The notes: generated by a model not told the origin, from the sequence alone. 64,000 nt of DNA from Candidatus Enterousia sp. (GCA_045614145.1 JAZLCH010000006.1:2421-66420), one strand, 5' to 3'; shown: positions 56,157 through 64,000, counted from the stretch's first letter. Translations and numbers: made by a program.

Positions 56157-56891
56157 ATGAAAAAAACACTGATTTGGATTGGAACAGTTGTTGGGGCGGG
56201 CGCGGTAATGGCGCTGGCCTTTAATTTACTGGAACAAAATGCCGTGGTTCGAACCGTGTCTGTTAATGGCGAATGCATCACCACGTTTAAAAAAGACAAG
56301 ACTGCAATTACTCTGCGTGTGACAACATTGGCACCAACAGCGGCGGAATCTATGAAACGCGCCACAGAAAAAGTGACCCAGATAACAAAACAACTGGAAA
56401 CGTTGCCGGTGGAAATGCAGACAACGCAATTTAATTCATACGAAAAAACCGAATGGAATCGCGATGAACAAAAATCTGTTACACTGGGGATTGAAACAAC
56501 TATCGCAATCGAGGTTTCAGCAAACGGCATGACCACAATCGAAACCGTGTTGGCACAATTTGCGGGACAGAATGATATATATACCGAAAACCTGCGCATG
56601 TATGCCAGTCCGGCTGTTACCAAGGCGGCACTGGAAAAATGCCTGAGTGGCGCGACCGAAAACGCACGCGTGCGTGCAGATGCACTGGCCGCTGGCGATG
56701 GACGCAAGGCCGGTAAAATGTTAAGCGTTTCGTACGGTACACAGATGACAAATGTCGCAGTGCCAGCATATGGATTGATGCGCACAAAAATGAACATAGC
56801 CGAAGCTGCTGCCATGGATACCAGCGGAACAATCGTCGGCAAAGATGCAGAATTGTCTGTTTCTGTGTCCGCAATATTTGAAATTAAATAG
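56157..56891 (+). CDS. SIMPL/DUF541-family periplasmic protein
   Basis: A signal peptide, a strong RBS aaaggagag and DUF541-like sequence character are present. The equal-length antisense ORF is a shadow. Confidence 0.55.
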   Translation: MKKTLIWIGTVVGAGAVMALAFNLLEQNAVVRTVSVNGECITTFKKDKTAITLRVTTLAPTAAESMKRATEKVTQITKQLETLPVEMQTTQFNSYEKTEWNRDEQKSVTLGIETTIAIEVSANGMTTIETVLAQFAGQNDIYTENLRMYASPAVTKAALEKCLSGATENARVRADALAAGDGRKAGKMLSVSYGTQMTNVAVPAYGLMRTKMNIAEAAAMDTSGTIVGKDAELSVSVSAIFEIK

Positions 56892-56898
56892 GCACAGC

Positions 56899-57810
56899 AT
56901 GAATGCGAATGTCATCGATTTTATTGAATATCTGATTCAAACAAAACACTATTCTGCGCACACGGCAACGGCGTATGAAAATGACATTCGCGATTTTATA
57001 AATTTTTTGGACGATTATCAGGGTGGCGCGCCCAGCCTGTCAGATTTTGCGCGCGCAGACACAATCTGCTTTCGCGCATATCTGGCAAATCGCCAACGGC
57101 GCGGTATGTCTGCAAACGCTACGGCGCGGGCGCTGTCTTCGCTGCGGGGTTTTTACAGGTTTCTGGGGAAATATTGCGGAATAAATAATGAGGCAATCGG
57201 TCTGATATCTGCGCCCAAGATTCCACGAAAATTGTCCAAGGCAATCGCACCAGTTGATGTTGAAAATATGCATGGCGCAATATCTGAAATCAATGCGCGC
57301 GAACCATGGATTGCGGCGCGCGATTGGGCGTTGGTCGTGTTGCTGTTTGGGTGCGGCCTGCGCATATCCGAGGCATTAGCCCTGAAGAACAAAGACATCG
57401 CAGGATTCCCAGCGGTATTAAGAATTACTGGCAAAGGCAAAAAGGAAAGATTGGTACCGGTTCTGCCGGCGGTTTGGGGCGCGATTGAAAAATATATGCG
57501 ATTGCGTCCATTTGGGAACGGTGCAGACGATGCGCTGTTTCGCAGTGTGCGCGGTCTGCCGATGTCGGCCCGCATGGCGGAAAAGGTTATCGAGGCACTG
57601 CGACACCATCTGCAATTGCCAGATTATGTGACACCGCACGCGTTGCGACACACTTTTGCGACCGCCCTGTTGGCGGACGGGGCAGATTTACGCAGTTTGC
57701 AAGAGCTGCTGGGGCATTCGTCGTTATCAACCACACAATTATATACGCGCGTGAACATGGCAGAAATCACGGATATTTACGCAAATGCACATCCGCGCGC
57801 CAAGGATTAA
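56899..57810 (+). CDS. xerC: Tyrosine recombinase XerC/XerD family
   Basis: An N-terminal SAM-like domain precedes a catalytic domain with R...HALRHTFAT...LLGH...Y. The catalytic residues R, H-x-x-R, H and Y are present. Confidence 0.8.
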   Translation: MNANVIDFIEYLIQTKHYSAHTATAYENDIRDFINFLDDYQGGAPSLSDFARADTICFRAYLANRQRRGMSANATARALSSLRGFYRFLGKYCGINNEAIGLISAPKIPRKLSKAIAPVDVENMHGAISEINAREPWIAARDWALVVLLFGCGLRISEALALKNKDIAGFPAVLRITGKGKKERLVPVLPAVWGAIEKYMRLRPFGNGADDALFRSVRGLPMSARMAEKVIEALRHHLQLPDYVTPHALRHTFATALLADGADLRSLQELLGHSSLSTTQLYTRVNMAEITDIYANAHPRAKD

Positions 57811-58229: not shown

Positions 58230-58946
58230 TTAAAATCTGTAGCCTATCCCCATGGCAACAGAAAAAGAACTGGCGCTTATCGAAATGTCTGTATCATCTA
58301 TTTCTGTCTCGGGGATAAAGGCATAGCTGGCAACGCCATATAAAAAGAAATTATAATTTACATAATAATTTACACCAAATCCAAATTTTATCATCAGGGA
58401 AGAAAAATCTATATCACTGGTTTCTGCAAAAATACCGGCCAGCCCCAGACGAAAAAATGGCGATGTATTTTCTGTTCCGTTTATAAAGCCATCAACAGTT
58501 ATTCCATATACGCCGGCATCCGTTTCTGTATTGTCGTCACCATCTATTGATGTTTCAATGTTCTGGTGCGCAATATCAAATGACAAGCGGACCCTGTTAT
58601 CTATATCAAAGCCAAACTTTAATGATATATCATCAAAAATCCCTTGGTTAATGGTAAATTCTGATGTGTCCTGATTAATTTCTTCTCCAAGTAAAACACT
58701 GCTCAGGTTTGTCGTATTATAAGACAACAAGGGTGCTTCTACGCTTATGAAAAATCGTGTATCAGATAATCTTTTTGGAACATAAACCGTGTCATTGTAT
58801 ATGATTTCGTCTGTAACATCTTGAAAGATGATTTCTTCTGTCTCTTGCGTATCAATATCAGGTTCTGCAACATTATCTTCGGCAAAACATGCGGCAGAAA
58901 CCGATAAAGACATTACCAAAGATAGTAACAATAATTTTGTTTTCAT
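58230..58946 (-). CDS. Outer-membrane beta-barrel protein (OmpA-like transmembrane / OMP_b-brl family)
   Basis: A signal peptide MKTKLLLLSLVMSLSVSAA, alternating amphipathic strands and a C-terminal GIGYRF aromatic terminus are present. Confidence 0.55.
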   Translation of the reverse strand: MKTKLLLLSLVMSLSVSAACFAEDNVAEPDIDTQETEEIIFQDVTDEIIYNDTVYVPKRLSDTRFFISVEAPLLSYNTTNLSSVLLGEEINQDTSEFTINQGIFDDISLKFGFDIDNRVRLSFDIAHQNIETSIDGDDNTETDAGVYGITVDGFINGTENTSPFFRLGLAGIFAETSDIDFSSLMIKFGFGVNYYVNYNFFLYGVASYAFIPETEIDDTDISISASSFSVAMGIGYRF

Positions 58947-59590: not shown

Positions 59591-59677
59591 ATCGGAATAA
59601 AATCATTGTTATTTACTTGACAATTGATTTGAATACCGTTATAATTTGCCAGCGTTTGATTAAGAACAGGCAGTTTT

Positions 59678-59753
59678 GGCCCCATCGTCTAGAGGCCTAG
59701 GACACCGCCCTTTCAAGGCGAGAACACCGGTTCGAATCCGGTTGGGGCTGCCA
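59678..59753 (+). tRNA. tRNA-Glu (anticodon TTC)
   Basis: Manual fold: acceptor GGCCCCA/TGGGGCT, D-region GTCTAGAGGCCTAGGAC typical of tRNA-Glu, anticodon loop CTTTCAA, T-arm ACCGG-TTCGAAT-CCGGT, CCA encoded. Confidence 0.8.
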
Positions 59754-61290
59754 AATCTGATTTTCCGTCCATTTGGGCGGATTTTTTATTGAAAATCCAA
59801 GGGGTTGCGGCGGTTCGAAATCCACTCTCTATACAAAAAACAGGTTTTTGCTCAAAAAGTATATGAACAAGTCGCTTGCGCTGGTTTAAACTTCCATTTT
59901 TCCACAGAATTGCGGGATTTTTGAAGAAACTATGCCCACGTTCCATGGCGGTTCGAAATTTCTGGGTGGCCGACATTGGCAACGCATCATTCAGTTGTTG
60001 TTCCAACTTTCGCTTCTTTGCTGATGCATGGCGTAACTGTTCAGAATATACCGCAACCATATCTTGGTCATCATTTCTATTTGCATCTGCCACCAAACGA
60101 CCAAACTGAACTATATCTTGTTCCAATGTTTCTATTTCCCTTTTCCATTTTTTTCGCTGCGCCAACACTTCATCGTCCTTGGCTCTGCAAACACGCTGCA
60201 ACACCACGTCGAATAAAAGAATCACATCATCTGGGGTCTGCATGCCATTCAAACATTCCACAAAAGCATCTTCAACCAGCGCACGTTTAATTGATTTATT
60301 ACGATGAACGCACCCCTTGTTATAGCATCGGTAATATGGATGTTTATTTTTACGCCCCCTGGCAAAATATCCACTTAATGGATTACCGCAATATTCACAA
60401 CAAATTTCATTACGCAAGGGAAATTCATATGCTAAATCTGAACGATGCGGCTGTCGCTTGTGTTTGTTTAGTTTGTTTTGAACTGCCAGAAACAAGTCCT
60501 GTGGGATAATTTTATCCATTTGCCATTCCCGACGTTCGATTCCCCAACGCCCGTATGCAAATACACCAGTATAAACCTCGTTCTGTAACATATTAGAAAC
60601 CTTGGTGTCATTTAACTTATCGTTATTAAACGCCCCTGATGCACGTAAAAATTCTGTAACATCATGCTTGGTTTCTAATTCCCCAGATGCGTATTTAGCA
60701 AATGCTTGGTAAATAACACTGGCTTTCGGCTCATCACGCACCAAAATAGTGCGTTTATGTTCATTTTTTATGCGTTTAAGCCCCGATGGCGGATTTAACG
60801 GATAAAATCCCAGTGTGCATAATGCACGCATTCTGTTAGTTGTTTTTTCAGACAATTCATCACTATACATTTGTGCGCGCAACACATCAAGACCACGCAT
60901 AAATCGCCCCATGGCATTATTTTCCAATTTGCCACCGACCACCGTTTGTAATTCCAAGTCATATTTCATAATAACATTTTCAATTGCCGTGTAATAAACA
61001 CCCATATTGCGCGCCAAGCGCGACATGTCATAACACAGAATGCGAATATGTTTATGTTTGTGATTTTTTTCGATATATTCAACCATGGCGTCCAGTCCAG
61101 GGCGGTTTGTTTTCCACCCCGACACCCCGTCTTCATAAAAGAATTTATCTATTTTGAAACCATTGTTGTTTGCATAGTTTAAACACGCCTGTTTTTGTGA
61201 TGTTATTGTTTCGTTTTTCGCTTGTTTATCCGATGAAACACGACAAAGGCACAATGTTTCTATTGGCAGGTTTTTAGTTGTTTGGGACAT
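59713..61290 (-). CDS. Large serine recombinase (resolvase/integrase family); ORF C-terminus overlaps the tRNA-Glu 3' end
   Basis: The N-terminal resolvase domain has a catalytic-Ser region LCRVSSDKQ. A recombinase domain and a Cys-rich zinc-ribbon-like CEYCGNPL...YYRCYNKGCVHRNK follow. The product is 525 aa. Confidence 0.8.
   Translation of the reverse strand: MSQTTKNLPIETLCLCRVSSDKQAKNETITSQKQACLNYANNNGFKIDKFFYEDGVSGWKTNRPGLDAMVEYIEKNHKHKHIRILCYDMSRLARNMGVYYTAIENVIMKYDLELQTVVGGKLENNAMGRFMRGLDVLRAQMYSDELSEKTTNRMRALCTLGFYPLNPPSGLKRIKNEHKRTILVRDEPKASVIYQAFAKYASGELETKHDVTEFLRASGAFNNDKLNDTKVSNMLQNEVYTGVFAYGRWGIERREWQMDKIIPQDLFLAVQNKLNKHKRQPHRSDLAYEFPLRNEICCEYCGNPLSGYFARGRKNKHPYYRCYNKGCVHRNKSIKRALVEDAFVECLNGMQTPDDVILLFDVVLQRVCRAKDDEVLAQRKKWKREIETLEQDIVQFGRLVADANRNDDQDMVAVYSEQLRHASAKKRKLEQQLNDALPMSATQKFRTAMERGHSFFKNPAILWKNGSLNQRKRLVHILFEQKPVFCIESGFRTAATPWIFNKKSAQMDGKSDLAAPTGFEPVFSP
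59765..59790 (+). terminator. Terminator after tRNA-Glu
   Basis: Hairpin ccgtcc-attt-gggcgg with one G-U pair is followed by a T-tract. Confidence 0.5.
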
Positions 61291-61315
61291 ATCATCACCC
61301 CTTTAATTACAATTT

Positions 61316-61450
61316 TTATTTTGTTAATAAAGTCCAGGCAAGTTCCTCCATAATCTCCACAAGTTTTGCCAACTGCTCATCTGTTAATTTGGTATGTTTC
61401 AAATACTTTCTTGCATCAGACACCGACATAATCGCCATCGCATATACCAT
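61316..61450 (-). CDS. Possible small ORF (44 aa) immediately upstream of the serine recombinase; candidate small regulatory or directionality factor
   Basis: The product is MVYAMAIMSVSDARKYLKHTKLTDEQLAKLVEIMEELAWTLLTK. It is not in the ORF track because it is under 60 aa. No clear SD is present. Confidence 0.2.
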   Translation of the reverse strand: MVYAMAIMSVSDARKYLKHTKLTDEQLAKLVEIMEELAWTLLTK

Positions 61451-61511
61451 TTAGGTTGCGTTTTGGCTTCGGTGCTTCCGATAATCAAAACAAGATTTCC
61501 ATTGGACTTTT

Positions 61512-62375
61512 TCATTTTGTCACCTTTCTTTTCTTTACTTGTTTGATGTGTATAATATTACCGTTACGTATCGATACTTCGACACTACCAAACCCTATTC
61601 CGTTTATGATTTTATGCAATTCGTCTTCTGGCGACTTGTTATGCGAATATTCTATTTCTAAACAATCTATTTGACCATCGTGTTTTTTTGCGCTGACAGT
61701 ACTGTTTTTTGGTGCTTCATTTACTGCATCAATTAAATCTTTTTCGCCATTATTTAACCACGTTGTGTTTTCAACATGCTTTGCTATTTCCCGATTTATA
61801 AATGTTTCATCAAAAACATCATTCAAATTCATTGTAATGTATGTACTTGGCATACACCCGCTTTGTTGATTTTTTAATATATCGCGTTGAGTCATAATCG
61901 CCGCACCGCCATCATCAAAAACCAGTAAATAAATATTACCGTCACCAGACATGCAAATAGAACGCCACAGCGCGAATTCTAACGACGTTAATGATTCTTG
62001 GCGTTTCTCATAATAATCTTCTGTATTCGGTTCTATATCCGTATCTAACACCAAACAAAATAACGCCCGATATGTTCTTTTTAGCGCCCCATTGGATAAA
62101 CCAATTTTACGCAACCTTGTTGCAATACCAACGAACAAAATGTCCATAAGTGTAAATTTATGCCATCCACGGTCATCAGAACGAATATCTGTTAATACCC
62201 CTGTTTGCAACCAGTAATTTATTACCCGCGAAGAAATCCCCGTGTTATTCGCGGTATATTGTTTTTTTCGCCACGTATTTATTGTTTCCCAGTTATCTTC
62301 TGTTGCAGCCGCATGTCCAAGCCCCATTTCATGCAGCGTTTCATCAGTATATTCCAGCATTATGGTCATTATCAT
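61512..62375 (-). CDS. Hypothetical island protein (287 aa), possible HTH-like segment
   Basis: The segment GISSRVINYWLQTGVLTD is HTH-like. The gene sits between the recombinase and the ankyrin protein. Confidence 0.35.
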   Translation of the reverse strand: MIMTIMLEYTDETLHEMGLGHAAATEDNWETINTWRKKQYTANNTGISSRVINYWLQTGVLTDIRSDDRGWHKFTLMDILFVGIATRLRKIGLSNGALKRTYRALFCLVLDTDIEPNTEDYYEKRQESLTSLEFALWRSICMSGDGNIYLLVFDDGGAAIMTQRDILKNQQSGCMPSTYITMNLNDVFDETFINREIAKHVENTTWLNNGEKDLIDAVNEAPKNSTVSAKKHDGQIDCLEIEYSHNKSPEDELHKIINGIGFGSVEVSIRNGNIIHIKQVKKRKVTK

Positions 62376-62451
62376 TCCCCTTATGAACTCATGACCATAA
62401 TAGGAACGAATAAACGCAAAAGCAAGAAAAACATTACATTATTGTAATATT

Positions 62452-63642
62452 TTACTTCGTGCCGAATTTCTTTTGTTGCATTTTGCGATATTCTGCCTTG
62501 GCGGTGATATTCGGGGTAATTTTGATTAATTCATCCCAATCATCATAACTGAAAAACCTGTTTCTGAAATCGTGTGCGGCAGCGATGAAACGCTTTTCTC
62601 TGGCGTTGTCATTATTGTATGCATATACACTCCACAAATATTCATAATACAGGAATTGGGCAACATTTTGCGAAACCATGTCACACTCGTCATAGAAACG
62701 TCTTGCGAAACTTTCTCCCAGTTCGTTATACAACATTTCTACGCCGTTGCCGCAAAAGGCATAAGAAGCGGGTTTGTCATAAATATCCCACGGTTCTTCA
62801 CCATTGGCCCAGCGATATTGCCCATGGCATTCCAAAATATAACGTGGTTCAATAAATTCAACAGGTTGCGCTGGCACAGGTTCATACACTTTATATTCTT
62901 GCCAAAAACCAATAAAACGGATTTCGCGAAACGATTGCGCTTTAACGCTAGTATCTTTACCCAACCAGTCCCACACATCATCCAGCGCACCCGCGCGCAA
63001 TAAAATCAGTTCTTTTTGTGCGTTTTCATGGGACGCTGGCTGCGAACGCACAATTGCCAACGGTGTTTTTTGTGTCCCATCTATCATCGTAGCAGCATTT
63101 ACATTTGCACCGTTAGCAACCAGCATTTCAATGATTTCAACTGATGAATTCTGTCGCAGTGCGTTGGTTAACGGACTATCCCCAACGTCATACCCATCAA
63201 CCCAATCTACGATTTCGCCACGCTGTATATGTTTGTTTAATTCGTCTGGCGTTATTTTAGACCAATCTTCAATATTCAATAAATCATGACCTGGCCTGTC
63301 TGGATTGATATTTTTACGTCTGGCCGAATAAATTTCAGGTTTTATGATATTCTCAATGTTATCAACATCAGGTTCGTTCAATTCATATTCTATCACCATT
63401 TCCACCATATAATCTATACTTGACTGGCGGTTTTCAAATACAGCAATATCCATCCCGCCATCAAATATACACGCGGCTTTCTTGGCAATATCAAAGTCAG
63501 TTTTTACCCACTTTCCACCGACAAACGCCTCTGTTTTACCAGAACCATCCACACGGTGAACAATGCCATCACCATAATAATCATACTTGGAAAAGTCCAA
63601 ATCTAATGCTTTTAAGATTTCATCTTTGTTCATTTTGTTCAC
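62452..63642 (-). CDS. Ankyrin-repeat-containing protein
   Basis: The ANK consensus SPLTNALRQNSSVEIIEMLVANGANVNAAT...TPLAIV is present. The product is 396 aa. Confidence 0.55.
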   Translation of the reverse strand: MNKMNKDEILKALDLDFSKYDYYGDGIVHRVDGSGKTEAFVGGKWVKTDFDIAKKAACIFDGGMDIAVFENRQSSIDYMVEMVIEYELNEPDVDNIENIIKPEIYSARRKNINPDRPGHDLLNIEDWSKITPDELNKHIQRGEIVDWVDGYDVGDSPLTNALRQNSSVEIIEMLVANGANVNAATMIDGTQKTPLAIVRSQPASHENAQKELILLRAGALDDVWDWLGKDTSVKAQSFREIRFIGFWQEYKVYEPVPAQPVEFIEPRYILECHGQYRWANGEEPWDIYDKPASYAFCGNGVEMLYNELGESFARRFYDECDMVSQNVAQFLYYEYLWSVYAYNNDNAREKRFIAAAHDFRNRFFSYDDWDELIKITPNITAKAEYRKMQQKKFGTK

Positions 63643-63687
63643 CTTTTCTCATTTTTTTAATACACGACCAAGCAGCGTGTTATTATG

Positions 63688-63906
63688 TTATTCATCGTAT
63701 TTTGCCAGCGCATTCTTGAATTTAAATGCCGCATCCATGTACCAATCGAAAATCGCCTGTTCGGATGTGGCCAAATCTTTCGGCATTTCCCAGCGGATGG
63801 TGCATGTGTTTTCTGATTCTTTCCATTTTAATTTTGTACCAAGTTCATTTTCAATATTACCCGCATTGGCCTTTAAATGGTCGTACAGTGGCTTTTGATT
63901 AATCAT
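63688..63906 (-). CDS. Small hypothetical protein (72 aa)
   Basis: The ORF is taken from the track only. No motif was recognised. Confidence 0.25.
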   Translation of the reverse strand: MINQKPLYDHLKANAGNIENELGTKLKWKESENTCTIRWEMPKDLATSEQAIFDWYMDAAFKFKNALAKYDE

Positions 63907-64000
63907 ATACGCGGTTATACTGCAACCCTTTTTGCTGGGCTGTGCGATGTTTGCTACATAGAAATGATAGCGTTTGTCACCAAAGGTTAAATCCAGGTAT

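Follow-up and report, generated by a model that had tools for sequence, protein, structure and literature searches.

A small mobile serine-integrase island at tRNA-Glu of Candidatus Enterousia sp., with an integrase gene that probably spans attP and exchanges its tail on integration

Why does the gene for a large serine recombinase (LSR) run head-on into a tRNA-Glu gene near the end of a 64,000-nucleotide stretch of Candidatus Enterousia sp. DNA (GCA_045614145.1 JAZLCH010000006.1:2421-66420; the whole stretch is called the window here)? An earlier sequence-only reading proposed an element integrated at this tRNA by the LSR, and comparison with relatives upholds it through their distal repeats, a circular form and a content of the site that varies among hosts. 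The account strongly favoured by the evidence as a whole is a small mobile LSR island at tRNA-Glu whose integrase open reading frame (ORF) crosses the attachment site attP and has its tail swapped on integration. Taken separately, an integrated serine-integrase island in the window is very probable, an integrase ORF that spans attP and exchanges its tail on integration is likely, and a regulatory or directional function of the exchange is a tentative proposal. The tRNA-proximal 4.25 kb of the island is present in the window, and its tRNA end has the following features.

59617..59645, + strand: promoter-like site of tRNA-Glu, TTGACA-17-TATAAT, 12/12 consensus positions (consensus scan), 33 nt upstream of the tRNA
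59678..59753, + strand: tRNA-Glu(UUC), the integration target (ARAGORN; Rfam RF00005, 56 bits)
59713..61290, - strand: LSR ORF, 525 aa (Pfam domains)
59750..61290, - strand: element-encoded LSR body, aa 1-514 (Pfam, PHROG, homolog alignment)
59713..59749, - strand: integrated-state tail of the LSR, codons 515-525 (APTGFEPVFSP) and stop, antisense to the 3' half of tRNA-Glu
59748..59754, strand-neutral: att core, CTGCCAA on the + strand and TTGGCAG in the LSR sense
59764..59791, + strand: intrinsic terminator-like hairpin, TCCGTCC-ATTT-GGGCGGA followed by a T run (terminator scan)

The promoter-like site is host DNA and lies outside the element. The 3' part of tRNA-Glu forms the B arm of attL, and the homology of the window to two other hosts (L095 and L097) stops exactly at 59753, the end of the tRNA. 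Base 59749 is part of codon 514 and one of the two putative crossover bases.

Three Pfam domains are found in the 525-aa protein, Resolvase PF00239 (1e-23), Recombinase PF07508 (4.6e-8) and Zn_ribbon_recom PF13408 (6.4e-6), and the body also has a coiled coil and a helical C-terminal domain. The protein matches the PHROG integrase family phrog_95 at 1.2e-68; its NCBIfam matches to CcrB (4e-14) and CcrA (2e-13) are weak and far under the family cut-offs. The catalytic residues are R17, S19, R91, and R94. An alignment of 30 homologs with identities down to 29% shows that R17, V18, S19, S20, Q23, R63, R91, and R94 are invariant, as are the four zinc-ribbon cysteines C298, C301, C322, and C327. 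The AlphaFold2 (AF2) model of a homolog, P0009, which is 59% identical to the window LSR, has a predicted local distance difference test (pLDDT) score of 87.5. In this homolog helices 350-402 and 405-431 form a coiled coil, and the top Foldseek matches of the model are full-length serine integrase-att complexes, Bxb1 and PhiC31, with E values of 1e-18 to 1e-13. The domains, residues and structural matches assign the 525-aa protein to the large serine recombinases.

The LSR ORF is convergent with tRNA-Glu(UUC) and overlaps it by 41 nt, in agreement with the antiparallel 525-aa recombinase over the tRNA 3' end that the sequence-only reading had described. Read in reverse complement, the tRNA between its CCA end and its anticodon loop encodes the last 13 residues (LAAPTGFEPVFSP), and the TGA stop codon is the reverse complement of T36-C37-A38 in that loop. 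The tail variants TRFELVFSP and LGFEPGFSP in relatives follow the T-arm of each host's tRNA-Glu. The last ~80 codons had been suspected of being non-coding read-through, which does not hold: homologs that are 44-67% identical keep the length and sequence of the C-terminus, and the ~70 codons ahead of the tRNA are thus genuine coding sequence. Comparison with these homologs indicates that only codons 515-525, antisense to the tRNA, derive from it. The earlier reading missed an ORF that would span the att site and give the protein a different C-terminus in the integrated and excised states.

A genome scan located L008, a goat-colon Alphaproteobacteria metagenome-assembled genome (MAG) that aligns with window positions 64000-59593 at 96.6%; the other relatives are gut MAGs, several of them named Candidatus Enterousia. 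By homology to L008 the window element would end ~1.4 kb past position 64000 and total ~5.65 kb, which bears out the expectation that it runs past the window. Distal-end anatomy was read in twelve related elements of 5.3-8.0 kb, that of L008 included. The distal end of all twelve consists of a GC-rich hairpin with T runs on both sides, followed by TTGGCAG (often TTTGGCAGCCC) and then by an ORF of 35-65 codons that is open and in the same phase as the LSR reading TTG-GCA-G at the tRNA (12/12). The first ~31 residues of this tail are conserved as LAAQ(I/V)xxNANxIIxEIINIAExLTDADIALY. Differences among the tails fall at codon positions 1/2/3 in the numbers 411/305/740 (summed pairwise over 11 distinct sequences), and the NG86 ratio of nonsynonymous to synonymous substitution rates, where computable, is 0.03-0.64 and mostly <0.5. 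This pattern indicates that the tail evolves as coding sequence under purifying selection. Reading of the junction sequences revealed neither a promoter nor a ribosome-binding sequence belonging to the tail, and a bidirectional terminator lies directly ahead of it, so selection most simply acts through the LSR C-terminus when the two ends are joined. The tail of the window element is predicted to be close to AHIEKNANQIIDQIIKIAELLTDADVSLYRGNN, the tailed LSR to have ~547 aa and the attP junction to read ...GGACGGAAAATCAGATTTGGCAGCCCACATAGAAAAAAATGC... (also written tggacggaaaatcagatTTGGCAGcccacatagaaaaaaatgc).

Joined ends are found in relatives. L007 has two different elements in tandem at tRNA-Glu, and the distal LSR, P0009 (563 aa), reads into the tail of its neighbor. 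A profile of the C-terminus plus tail gave 9 matches and no fused proteins, its candidates being limited by the word index; further fused forms came from 90% cluster members instead. These are the length variants P0301 (564 aa) and P0314 (558 aa) in the clusters of two other relatives, and both are 524-aa proteins with the tRNA-derived end exchanged for a tail of the conserved type. The P0301 tail is identical to the far-end tail of a related element in L011. P0314 is encoded on L103, a 4,499-bp contig with an exact 18-bp terminal overlap (a 4,481-bp circle) that holds nothing but element DNA and the junction ...GGACGGAAAATCAGAT-TTGGCAG-CCCACATAGAAAAAAATTC.... L103 is 99.6-99.8% identical to, and circularly colinear with, the integrated element of L098, which lies beside META and tRNA-Glu and encodes an LSR of 524 aa. 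The pair is assembly-level evidence for a 4.48-kb circle. P0301 is encoded on L102, which contains a 6,524-bp cycle closed by a 77-bp repeat, and on L101, which consists of a terminator-type flank, one full copy, the junction, and a second identical copy. A fusion at the other end of the protein occurs in one cluster member, P0319 (656 aa, on a Logan contig of 24,344 bp), where the N-terminal part of the upstream MerR-like protein and the LSR form one ORF; a frameshift or an assembly error could account for this, as could a genuine fusion.

The steps displayed by the relatives can be carried to the window element by homology. The 6-7-bp core CTGCCA(A), at the very 3' end of tRNA-Glu(UUC), would be the place of recombination. 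In the circle the LSR ORF would run on across attP into a tail of 33-63 codons from the other end of the element, and integration would detach that tail and supply the 11 tRNA-antisense codons (APTGFEPVFSP) instead, with the stop in the anticodon loop. The integrated junction would again resemble the target (terminator hairpin, core, tRNA), which would allow further elements and integrase-less cassettes to pile up in tandem at the same tRNA. The circular-form enzyme may need its tail for integration, stability or direction control, and the swap may mark the integration state, as in the IntP/IntX pair of phage Mx8.

The ORF across attP could also be real and functionally neutral, with a dispensable tail and two protein forms that behave alike. 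McMurdie et al. (PMC3146451) offered a trivial reading of this sort for the divergent C-termini of DsiB, the tail past its first ~31 residues varies in length and sequence, and AF2 leaves the tail undocked on the protein. The search for distal repeats at distant loci points the same way in one case: exact matches of at least 11 nt were unproductive there, with cores too short or elements >10 kb, and the one repeat that looked non-random, in the distant relative L045, would give a tail of just 11 aa. Neutrality has to contend, however, with ~31 tail codons under purifying selection in elements whose LSRs are only 55-65% identical, with a tail that is open and in frame in every one of the twelve elements, and with the terminator ahead and the missing ribosome-binding sequence, which make selection hard to explain except via the fused protein. 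This alternative fares best of those considered and is still somewhat improbable.

The mobility of the island was assessed by comparing the window with L008. DNA identity between the two is as follows, and their synteny ends at tRNA-Asp.

META gene (host): 76.7%
META-tRNA spacer (host): 79%
tRNA-Glu: 100%
LSR: 98.3%
44-aa ORF and MerR-like gene: 99.0%
ankyrin-repeat gene: 94.2%
DUF4268 part: 93.9%

Hosts with a 96% identical META protein, the same upstream synteny and ~88% DNA identity in the flank were compared at the same tRNA. The tRNA is followed in L095 by a 1.9-kb DnaJ/MORN cassette between two CTGCCA cores and then by a 47-nt remnant of an LSR 3' end; in L096 by a 68-nt LSR remnant and then an ABC-F gene, with no LSR at the site; and in L098 by another LSR element of 77% DNA identity. 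L004 and L001 encode an identical recombinase, P0004, and L004 differs by a 1.06-kb integrase-less cassette exactly at the distal core, with TTTTGGCAG at both ends. On another P0004-encoding contig the homology breaks at the core. These comparisons mark the tRNA-Glu end as a site of frequent and precise gain and loss.

A fixed, vertically inherited remnant that is no longer mobile would fit the position of the close LSR relatives, all of which sit at the same tRNA-Glu, the existence of LSR 3'-end scars (L096, L095 and L007 4827-4875), and the failure to find a circle of the window's own element type. It is at odds with an intact LSR ORF in which all catalytic and zinc-binding residues are present, with 94-99% identity to the copy of another host that has a flank of 77% identity and a different synteny, and with site content that varies among hosts with a 96%-identical META protein. 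Rather than a fixed gene order with neither distal repeat nor excision product, the relatives present distal repeats, a circle and changing content at the site, and a fixed remnant is unlikely.

The position of the crossover was approached through the junctions. Every attL, attR, attP and cassette junction in the relatives carries a common core of 6-7 nt, and the junction types (tRNA side, tail side, and integrase-less cassettes) have only TGGCAG/TTGGCAG in common, the flanks being arm-specific. Reading of the sequences shows an imperfect dyad symmetry centered on AG/CT in the reconstructed attP (ATTTGG-C-AG-C-CCAAAT), and the window attL (AATCCGGTTGGGGC joined to TGCCAAATCTGATT) has 10/14 positions paired about the same AG/CT center. 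This symmetry, which was placed post hoc with the data already seen, suggests CT at 59748-59749 (AG in the LSR sense), tRNA nucleotides 71-72, as the crossover dinucleotide. If this dinucleotide is right, the element would give the tRNA its last bases (discriminator base and CCA) and a new terminator, carried antisense within the last ~25 codons of the LSR. The terminator hairpin encodes ...SAQMDGKS... in the LSR frame, antisense within the coding sequence. Alignment of 13 attL sequences shows 13 pairs in the hairpin, 4 of them with compensatory double changes, and L007A has a different hairpin at the same place that changes the protein from SAQTDGES to TALASGES. The compensatory changes and the hairpin swap indicate that this stretch is constrained as a terminator and att arm, not as protein. 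One stretch of DNA would be put to triple use as protein tail, att arm and tRNA terminator.

Both arms contain a CGAAC motif. Counted from the center, it occupies +20 to +24 of the tail arm, and the tRNA arm has it, as the T-loop, at +15 to +19. The zinc-ribbon-binding motif of serine integrases is offset by ~5 bp between attP and attB half-sites, and the match to the CGAAC offset is suggestive only. It bears on the possibility that the distal tail is separate from the LSR, either as a small gene that starts at the core TTG or as a non-coding attP arm for protein binding: TTG is a possible start codon, the core-near P arm must be conserved for binding, and the distance of CGAAC from the core is 5 bp greater in the P arm than on the tRNA side, which resembles the attP and attB half-site difference. 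The conservation nevertheless extends over ~90 bp, well past a half-site of ~25 bp, and has a codon-position pattern; no promoter or ribosome-binding sequence lies between the terminator hairpin and the TTG; and three independent sets of contigs contain fused ORFs of 558-564 aa. A tail independent of the LSR is very unlikely.

The C-terminal domain of the LSR contains two copies of a 13-mer that had been taken for degenerate tRNA fragments left by repeated integration.

59809..59821, - strand: first 13-mer, G-F-R-T-A (aa 490-494), LSR C-terminal domain codons
59947..59959, - strand: second 13-mer, K-F-R-T-A (aa 444-448), LSR C-terminal domain codons

The exact copies of GGCGGTTCGAAAT at 59809 and 59947 are as described and are the only ones in the window; chance would give ~0.17 matches, and at least two copies occurred in 2/100 shuffles. 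Both share the codon phase of the LSR (GGA/AAA TTT CGA ACC GCC, read as F-R-T-A), and F445/T447/A448 and G490/F491/T493/A494 are invariant or nearly so across the 30 homologs. Their origin in tRNA, together with read-through of the last ~80 codons, draws on GGTTCGAAATCC differing from the T-loop GGTTCGAATCC by one inserted A and on a pair rarer than chance, and is scarcely credible, given that the motifs keep the same phase and persist to 29% identity even in LSRs targeting other tRNAs and tmRNA, that the 13-mers lie 56 and 194 nt from the tRNA end, beyond any att half-site, and that the true tandem scars of relatives look different, with a hairpin and TTGGCAG. The alignment identifies the 13-mers as conserved LSR codons and not integration scars.

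Several points weigh against an island whose integrase tail is exchanged at attP. The window stops short of the distal end, so its own tail and attR are predicted from L008. The circles and fusions come from relatives whose LSRs are 63-65% identical to the window LSR, and no fused LSR is present among the 15 listed members of the window LSR's own 90% cluster. Closure of L103 depends on the 18-bp overlap and the colinearity with L098, and L101 and L102 may be circles or chromosomal tandem dimers. A degenerate pattern for the attP junction found none in the JGI metagenomes, which contain little from gut organisms of this sort. All related sites carry some cassette or scar, and an empty attB in pristine form was not seen. 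The P0009 model gives the tail a pLDDT <50 with just one predicted helix (517-532) and offers no structural clue to its role.

Integrase-less cassettes of 1-2.4 kb stand in tandem behind tRNA-Glu in several relatives (L008 1197-5888, L004 4064-5123, L002 3873-4942, and L095 10621-12544). Their cargo is a DnaJ/MORN protein, a GNAT protein with an APH-type kinase and a Tlde1-like protein, or a 256-aa protein of no known type. Each is bounded by a terminator hairpin and TTGGCAG, and most (not the one at L008 5647) start with the arm GGCCAxCTGTGCAATTTACGAAC, in which the offset of CGAAC equals that of the LSR-element tail arm. Their appearance is that of non-autonomous units mobilized in trans by the serine integrase. 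A unit of ~182 bp recurs at L001 4942-5124, L002 3687-3872 and 4942-5124, L012 156-337, and L011 614-785. At its start the final 19 nt of tRNA-Glu are repeated without a mismatch, within it lie a strong hairpin (cccgccgcgctggcgcgtgcggcggg) and a T-arm-like sequence (ccagttcaaatctgg), and at its end stand a terminator and TTGGCAG. Possible identities are a miniature element, a small RNA resembling a tRNA, and a scar. LSR 3'-end remnants of 47-68 nt, mainly the terminator hairpin, lie beside cores that lack an LSR (L007 4827-4875, L095 12537-12583, and L096 10627-10695), and the element-derived terminator appears to be kept as a working tRNA terminator after the element has decayed.

The remainder of the island in the window carries four genes.

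61316..61450, - strand: 44-aa ORF (cluster c1), directly upstream of the LSR and kept in relatives
61512..62375, - strand: 287-aa protein with a MerR-type helix-turn-helix (HTH; Pfam MerR_1, 5.6e-6)
62452..63642, - strand: 396-aa cargo protein with ~two ankyrin repeats (aa 133-230; PDB phmmer to DARPins)
63688..64000, - strand: 3' part of a DUF4268/PDC-S11 gene, cut by the window end (Pfam DUF4268; 93.9% DNA identity to L008 7290-7602)

Three genes are conserved across 11 elements, namely those for the LSR, for the 39-46-aa protein directly upstream of the LSR, and for a protein of 250-300 aa whose N-terminal part has a MerR-type HTH. The 44-aa ORF, earlier listed as a possible gene, is real by this measure, since its family is present in 11/11 related elements with a mean column identity of 60% in the alignment. 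It has no Pfam, NCBIfam or PHROG match and is a candidate recombination directionality factor or regulator. The HTH-like nature of the 287-aa protein is borne out by the MerR_1 match, which recurs at the same position in its 249-273-aa equivalents in other elements. The 44-aa protein, the MerR-like protein, or both may serve as directionality or regulatory factors.

The 396-aa protein had been read as ankyrin cargo typical of intracellular bacteria. The repeats themselves, about two of them, are indicated by DARPin matches down to E 6e-15; all Pfam Ank models stay below their cut-offs, PADLOC, PHROG and NCBIfam give no match, and the ankyrin call is weak. The typical-cargo part of the claim does not fit elements from gut MAGs with defense-like cargo. 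The small protein at the window end does exist as a 72-aa ORF, which is not a separate small protein as had been supposed but the C-terminal part of a 308-aa DUF4268/PADLOC PDC-S11 protein. The full-length copy in L008 matches PDC-S11 at 3.2e-97, and the gene is a candidate for anti-phage defense. Cargo varies among elements: the window type has PDC-S11, L007A an OLD-family nuclease, L015 an Mrr-like nuclease, and others a PEGA-domain protein. The recognizable part of it looks defense-related (PDC-S11, OLD, and Mrr-like nucleases).

No virion or transfer genes were found, and the PHROGs matches in the L008 copy are just the integrase and two families of unknown function. A prophage was ruled out by the lack of structural genes, an integrative conjugative element by a size of ~5.65 kb, too small for a conjugation apparatus, and an effector island of an intracellular bacterium by the gut MAG context and the weak ankyrin signal. 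By gene content the elements are small integrative islands. IMG/VR holds distant LSRs only (25-26% identity), and plasmid and phage collections gave only generic LSR similarity of 21-30% over the N-terminal two thirds. L094 (MT838319.1, 5,411 bp) and other 4-8.6-kb 'Bacteriophage sp.' records from human fecal viromes encode distant LSRs of 24-30% identity and might be packaged small integrative elements of a similar kind. On the host side of tRNA-Glu, a Xer-type tyrosine recombinase gene (Phage_integrase and SAM-like N-terminal domain) at 56845-57810, just upstream of tRNA-Asp, was ruled out as part of the element because it is syntenic in L095 and L096 and is therefore host DNA. An outer membrane protein beta-barrel gene at 58230-58946, between tRNA-Asp and META, is found in the window, L095 and L097 and is absent from L096 and L008, so the stretch between the two tRNAs is also variable.

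Targeting of tRNA ends extends through the family. A survey covered 80 genome loci with LSR relatives of 25-97% identity; Alphaproteobacteria and numerous candidate-phyla bacteria are among the hosts. At 51/80 loci the end of the LSR ORF falls within a convergent gene for a tRNA or tmRNA, and at ~11 more the ORF borders on such a gene. By target, the 51 divide into tmRNA (21), Glu (11), Leu (5), Arg (4), Ala (4), Tyr (2), and a single case each of Asn, Met, Thr and Val. The family consensus finishes with ...SxLxxxxGFEP, an antisense reading, in a conserved frame, of the CCA end and the T-loop. Among individual loci, L021 1219-2816 is a 44% identical relative at tRNA-Asn in a Rickettsiales MAG, and L023-L087 are relatives of 25-30% identity that, in many phyla, sit at genes for tmRNA and for eight additional tRNA species; these integrases are always convergent with their target and mostly end inside the RNA gene. 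A phmmer search of 1.84 billion representatives with the 73-aa C-terminal domain as query yielded 17 matches, a number that is not a measure of family size.

The earlier remark that LSRs rarely target tRNA genes agrees with the literature. PMC4383910 states that no tRNA-targeting serine integrases were known, and TIGER (PMC7192596) placed 14/297 serine integrases at t(m)RNA genes, a use 'not reported previously' for which its authors asked for experimental proof. The closest precedents by analogy are DsiB of the Dehalococcoides ssrA islands and Mx8 IntP/IntX. DsiB and the window LSR are likened by description and locus architecture: DsiB is a ~540-aa CcrB-like LSR convergent with the tmRNA 3' end, its islands have a direct repeat of the target 3' end at the boundary and build up in tandem, and many relatives of the window LSR also lie at tmRNA genes (21/80 loci). 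The corresponding distal repeat here (TTTGGCAGCCC or TTGGCAG) is seen in the 12 relatives, the window stopping before its own boundary. McMurdie et al. 2011 (PMC3146451) described DsiB C-termini that diverge in length and sequence and left full function in the circle only as speculation. Unlike those islands, the target here is tRNA-Glu, the core is 6-11 bp compared with ~20 bp, the elements are 4.5-8 kb, the tail is conserved under purifying selection, and the fused form is on a circular contig. The Dehalococcoides integration module has six genes; of these a second small serine recombinase (DsiA), ParB, RecF and Mom proteins were all absent from the scanned cargo (Pfam) and from the conserved cross-element clusters. 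New with respect to DsiB are thus the other target and gene module, the conserved and selected split-off tail, and the sequenced circle with a fused gene.

In Mx8, attP lies within the integrase gene, and the integrated enzyme is not inactivated but altered in its properties (Tojo et al. 1996 and Magrini et al. 1999, as summarized in PMC6070905 and PMC4383910, which name the sites attB1/attB2). The likeness is that attP is inside the integrase ORF and integration gives the gene a new 3' end; Mx8 differs in being a 49-kb phage with a tyrosine recombinase of unrelated chemistry and att architecture, so this is an analogy of design and not family membership. Mx8 reportedly integrates into tRNA-Asp. 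SCCmec with CcrA/CcrB shares LSR-driven tandem islands at one site, including integrase-less cassettes, and differs in its target, the 3' end of the protein gene orfX/rlmH, and in the usual presence of two recombinases. We know of no report of an ORF spanning the att site in SCC. In tyrosine-integrase tRNA islands (Islander/TIGER; Williams 2002), too, the integrase adjoins the tRNA, the 3' end is restored, a displaced fragment marks the far end, and tandem arrays form; the recombinase family is different, and ~4 tRNA bases are replaced here, with a very short identity segment, compared with a block of 15-45 bp. Prochlorococcus tycheposons (10.1101/2020.12.28.424599) are likened by description as small cargo elements at tRNA/tmRNA genes, of which 27/937 have a large serine recombinase instead of a tyrosine integrase; their hosts are marine cyanobacteria, and an ORF across att is not described in the parts of that source consulted.

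It is possible, although doubtful at the full breadth of the claim, that the window element belongs to a widespread and largely undescribed clade of LSRs for tRNA/tmRNA 3' ends, in which the gene is deliberately built across attP. The tailed and tRNA-tailed enzymes would then differ in activity or direction and so record the integration state, and the elements would form integron-like cassette arrays, many with defense genes. Members of the clade come from Alphaproteobacteria of gut and marine origin, from many bacteria of candidate phyla, and from other hosts. Serine integrases are preferred tools for the insertion of large DNA, and structural work is actively asking how they choose direction; a natural case of an enzyme whose C-terminus is rewritten by its own reaction could be tested with two proteins and four short att sites. 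The call of the TIGER authors for proof that serine integrases use t(m)RNA genes is answered here by a whole clade, whose core is tiny (CTGCCA, the discriminator-CCA end that is universal), whose reading frame over the T-arm is conserved, and whose targets include tmRNA and no fewer than nine tRNA species. Such enzymes would find ready-made landing sites in almost any bacterium, and the tRNA-Glu locus shows small defense-gene cassettes accumulating in reduced-genome gut Alphaproteobacteria.

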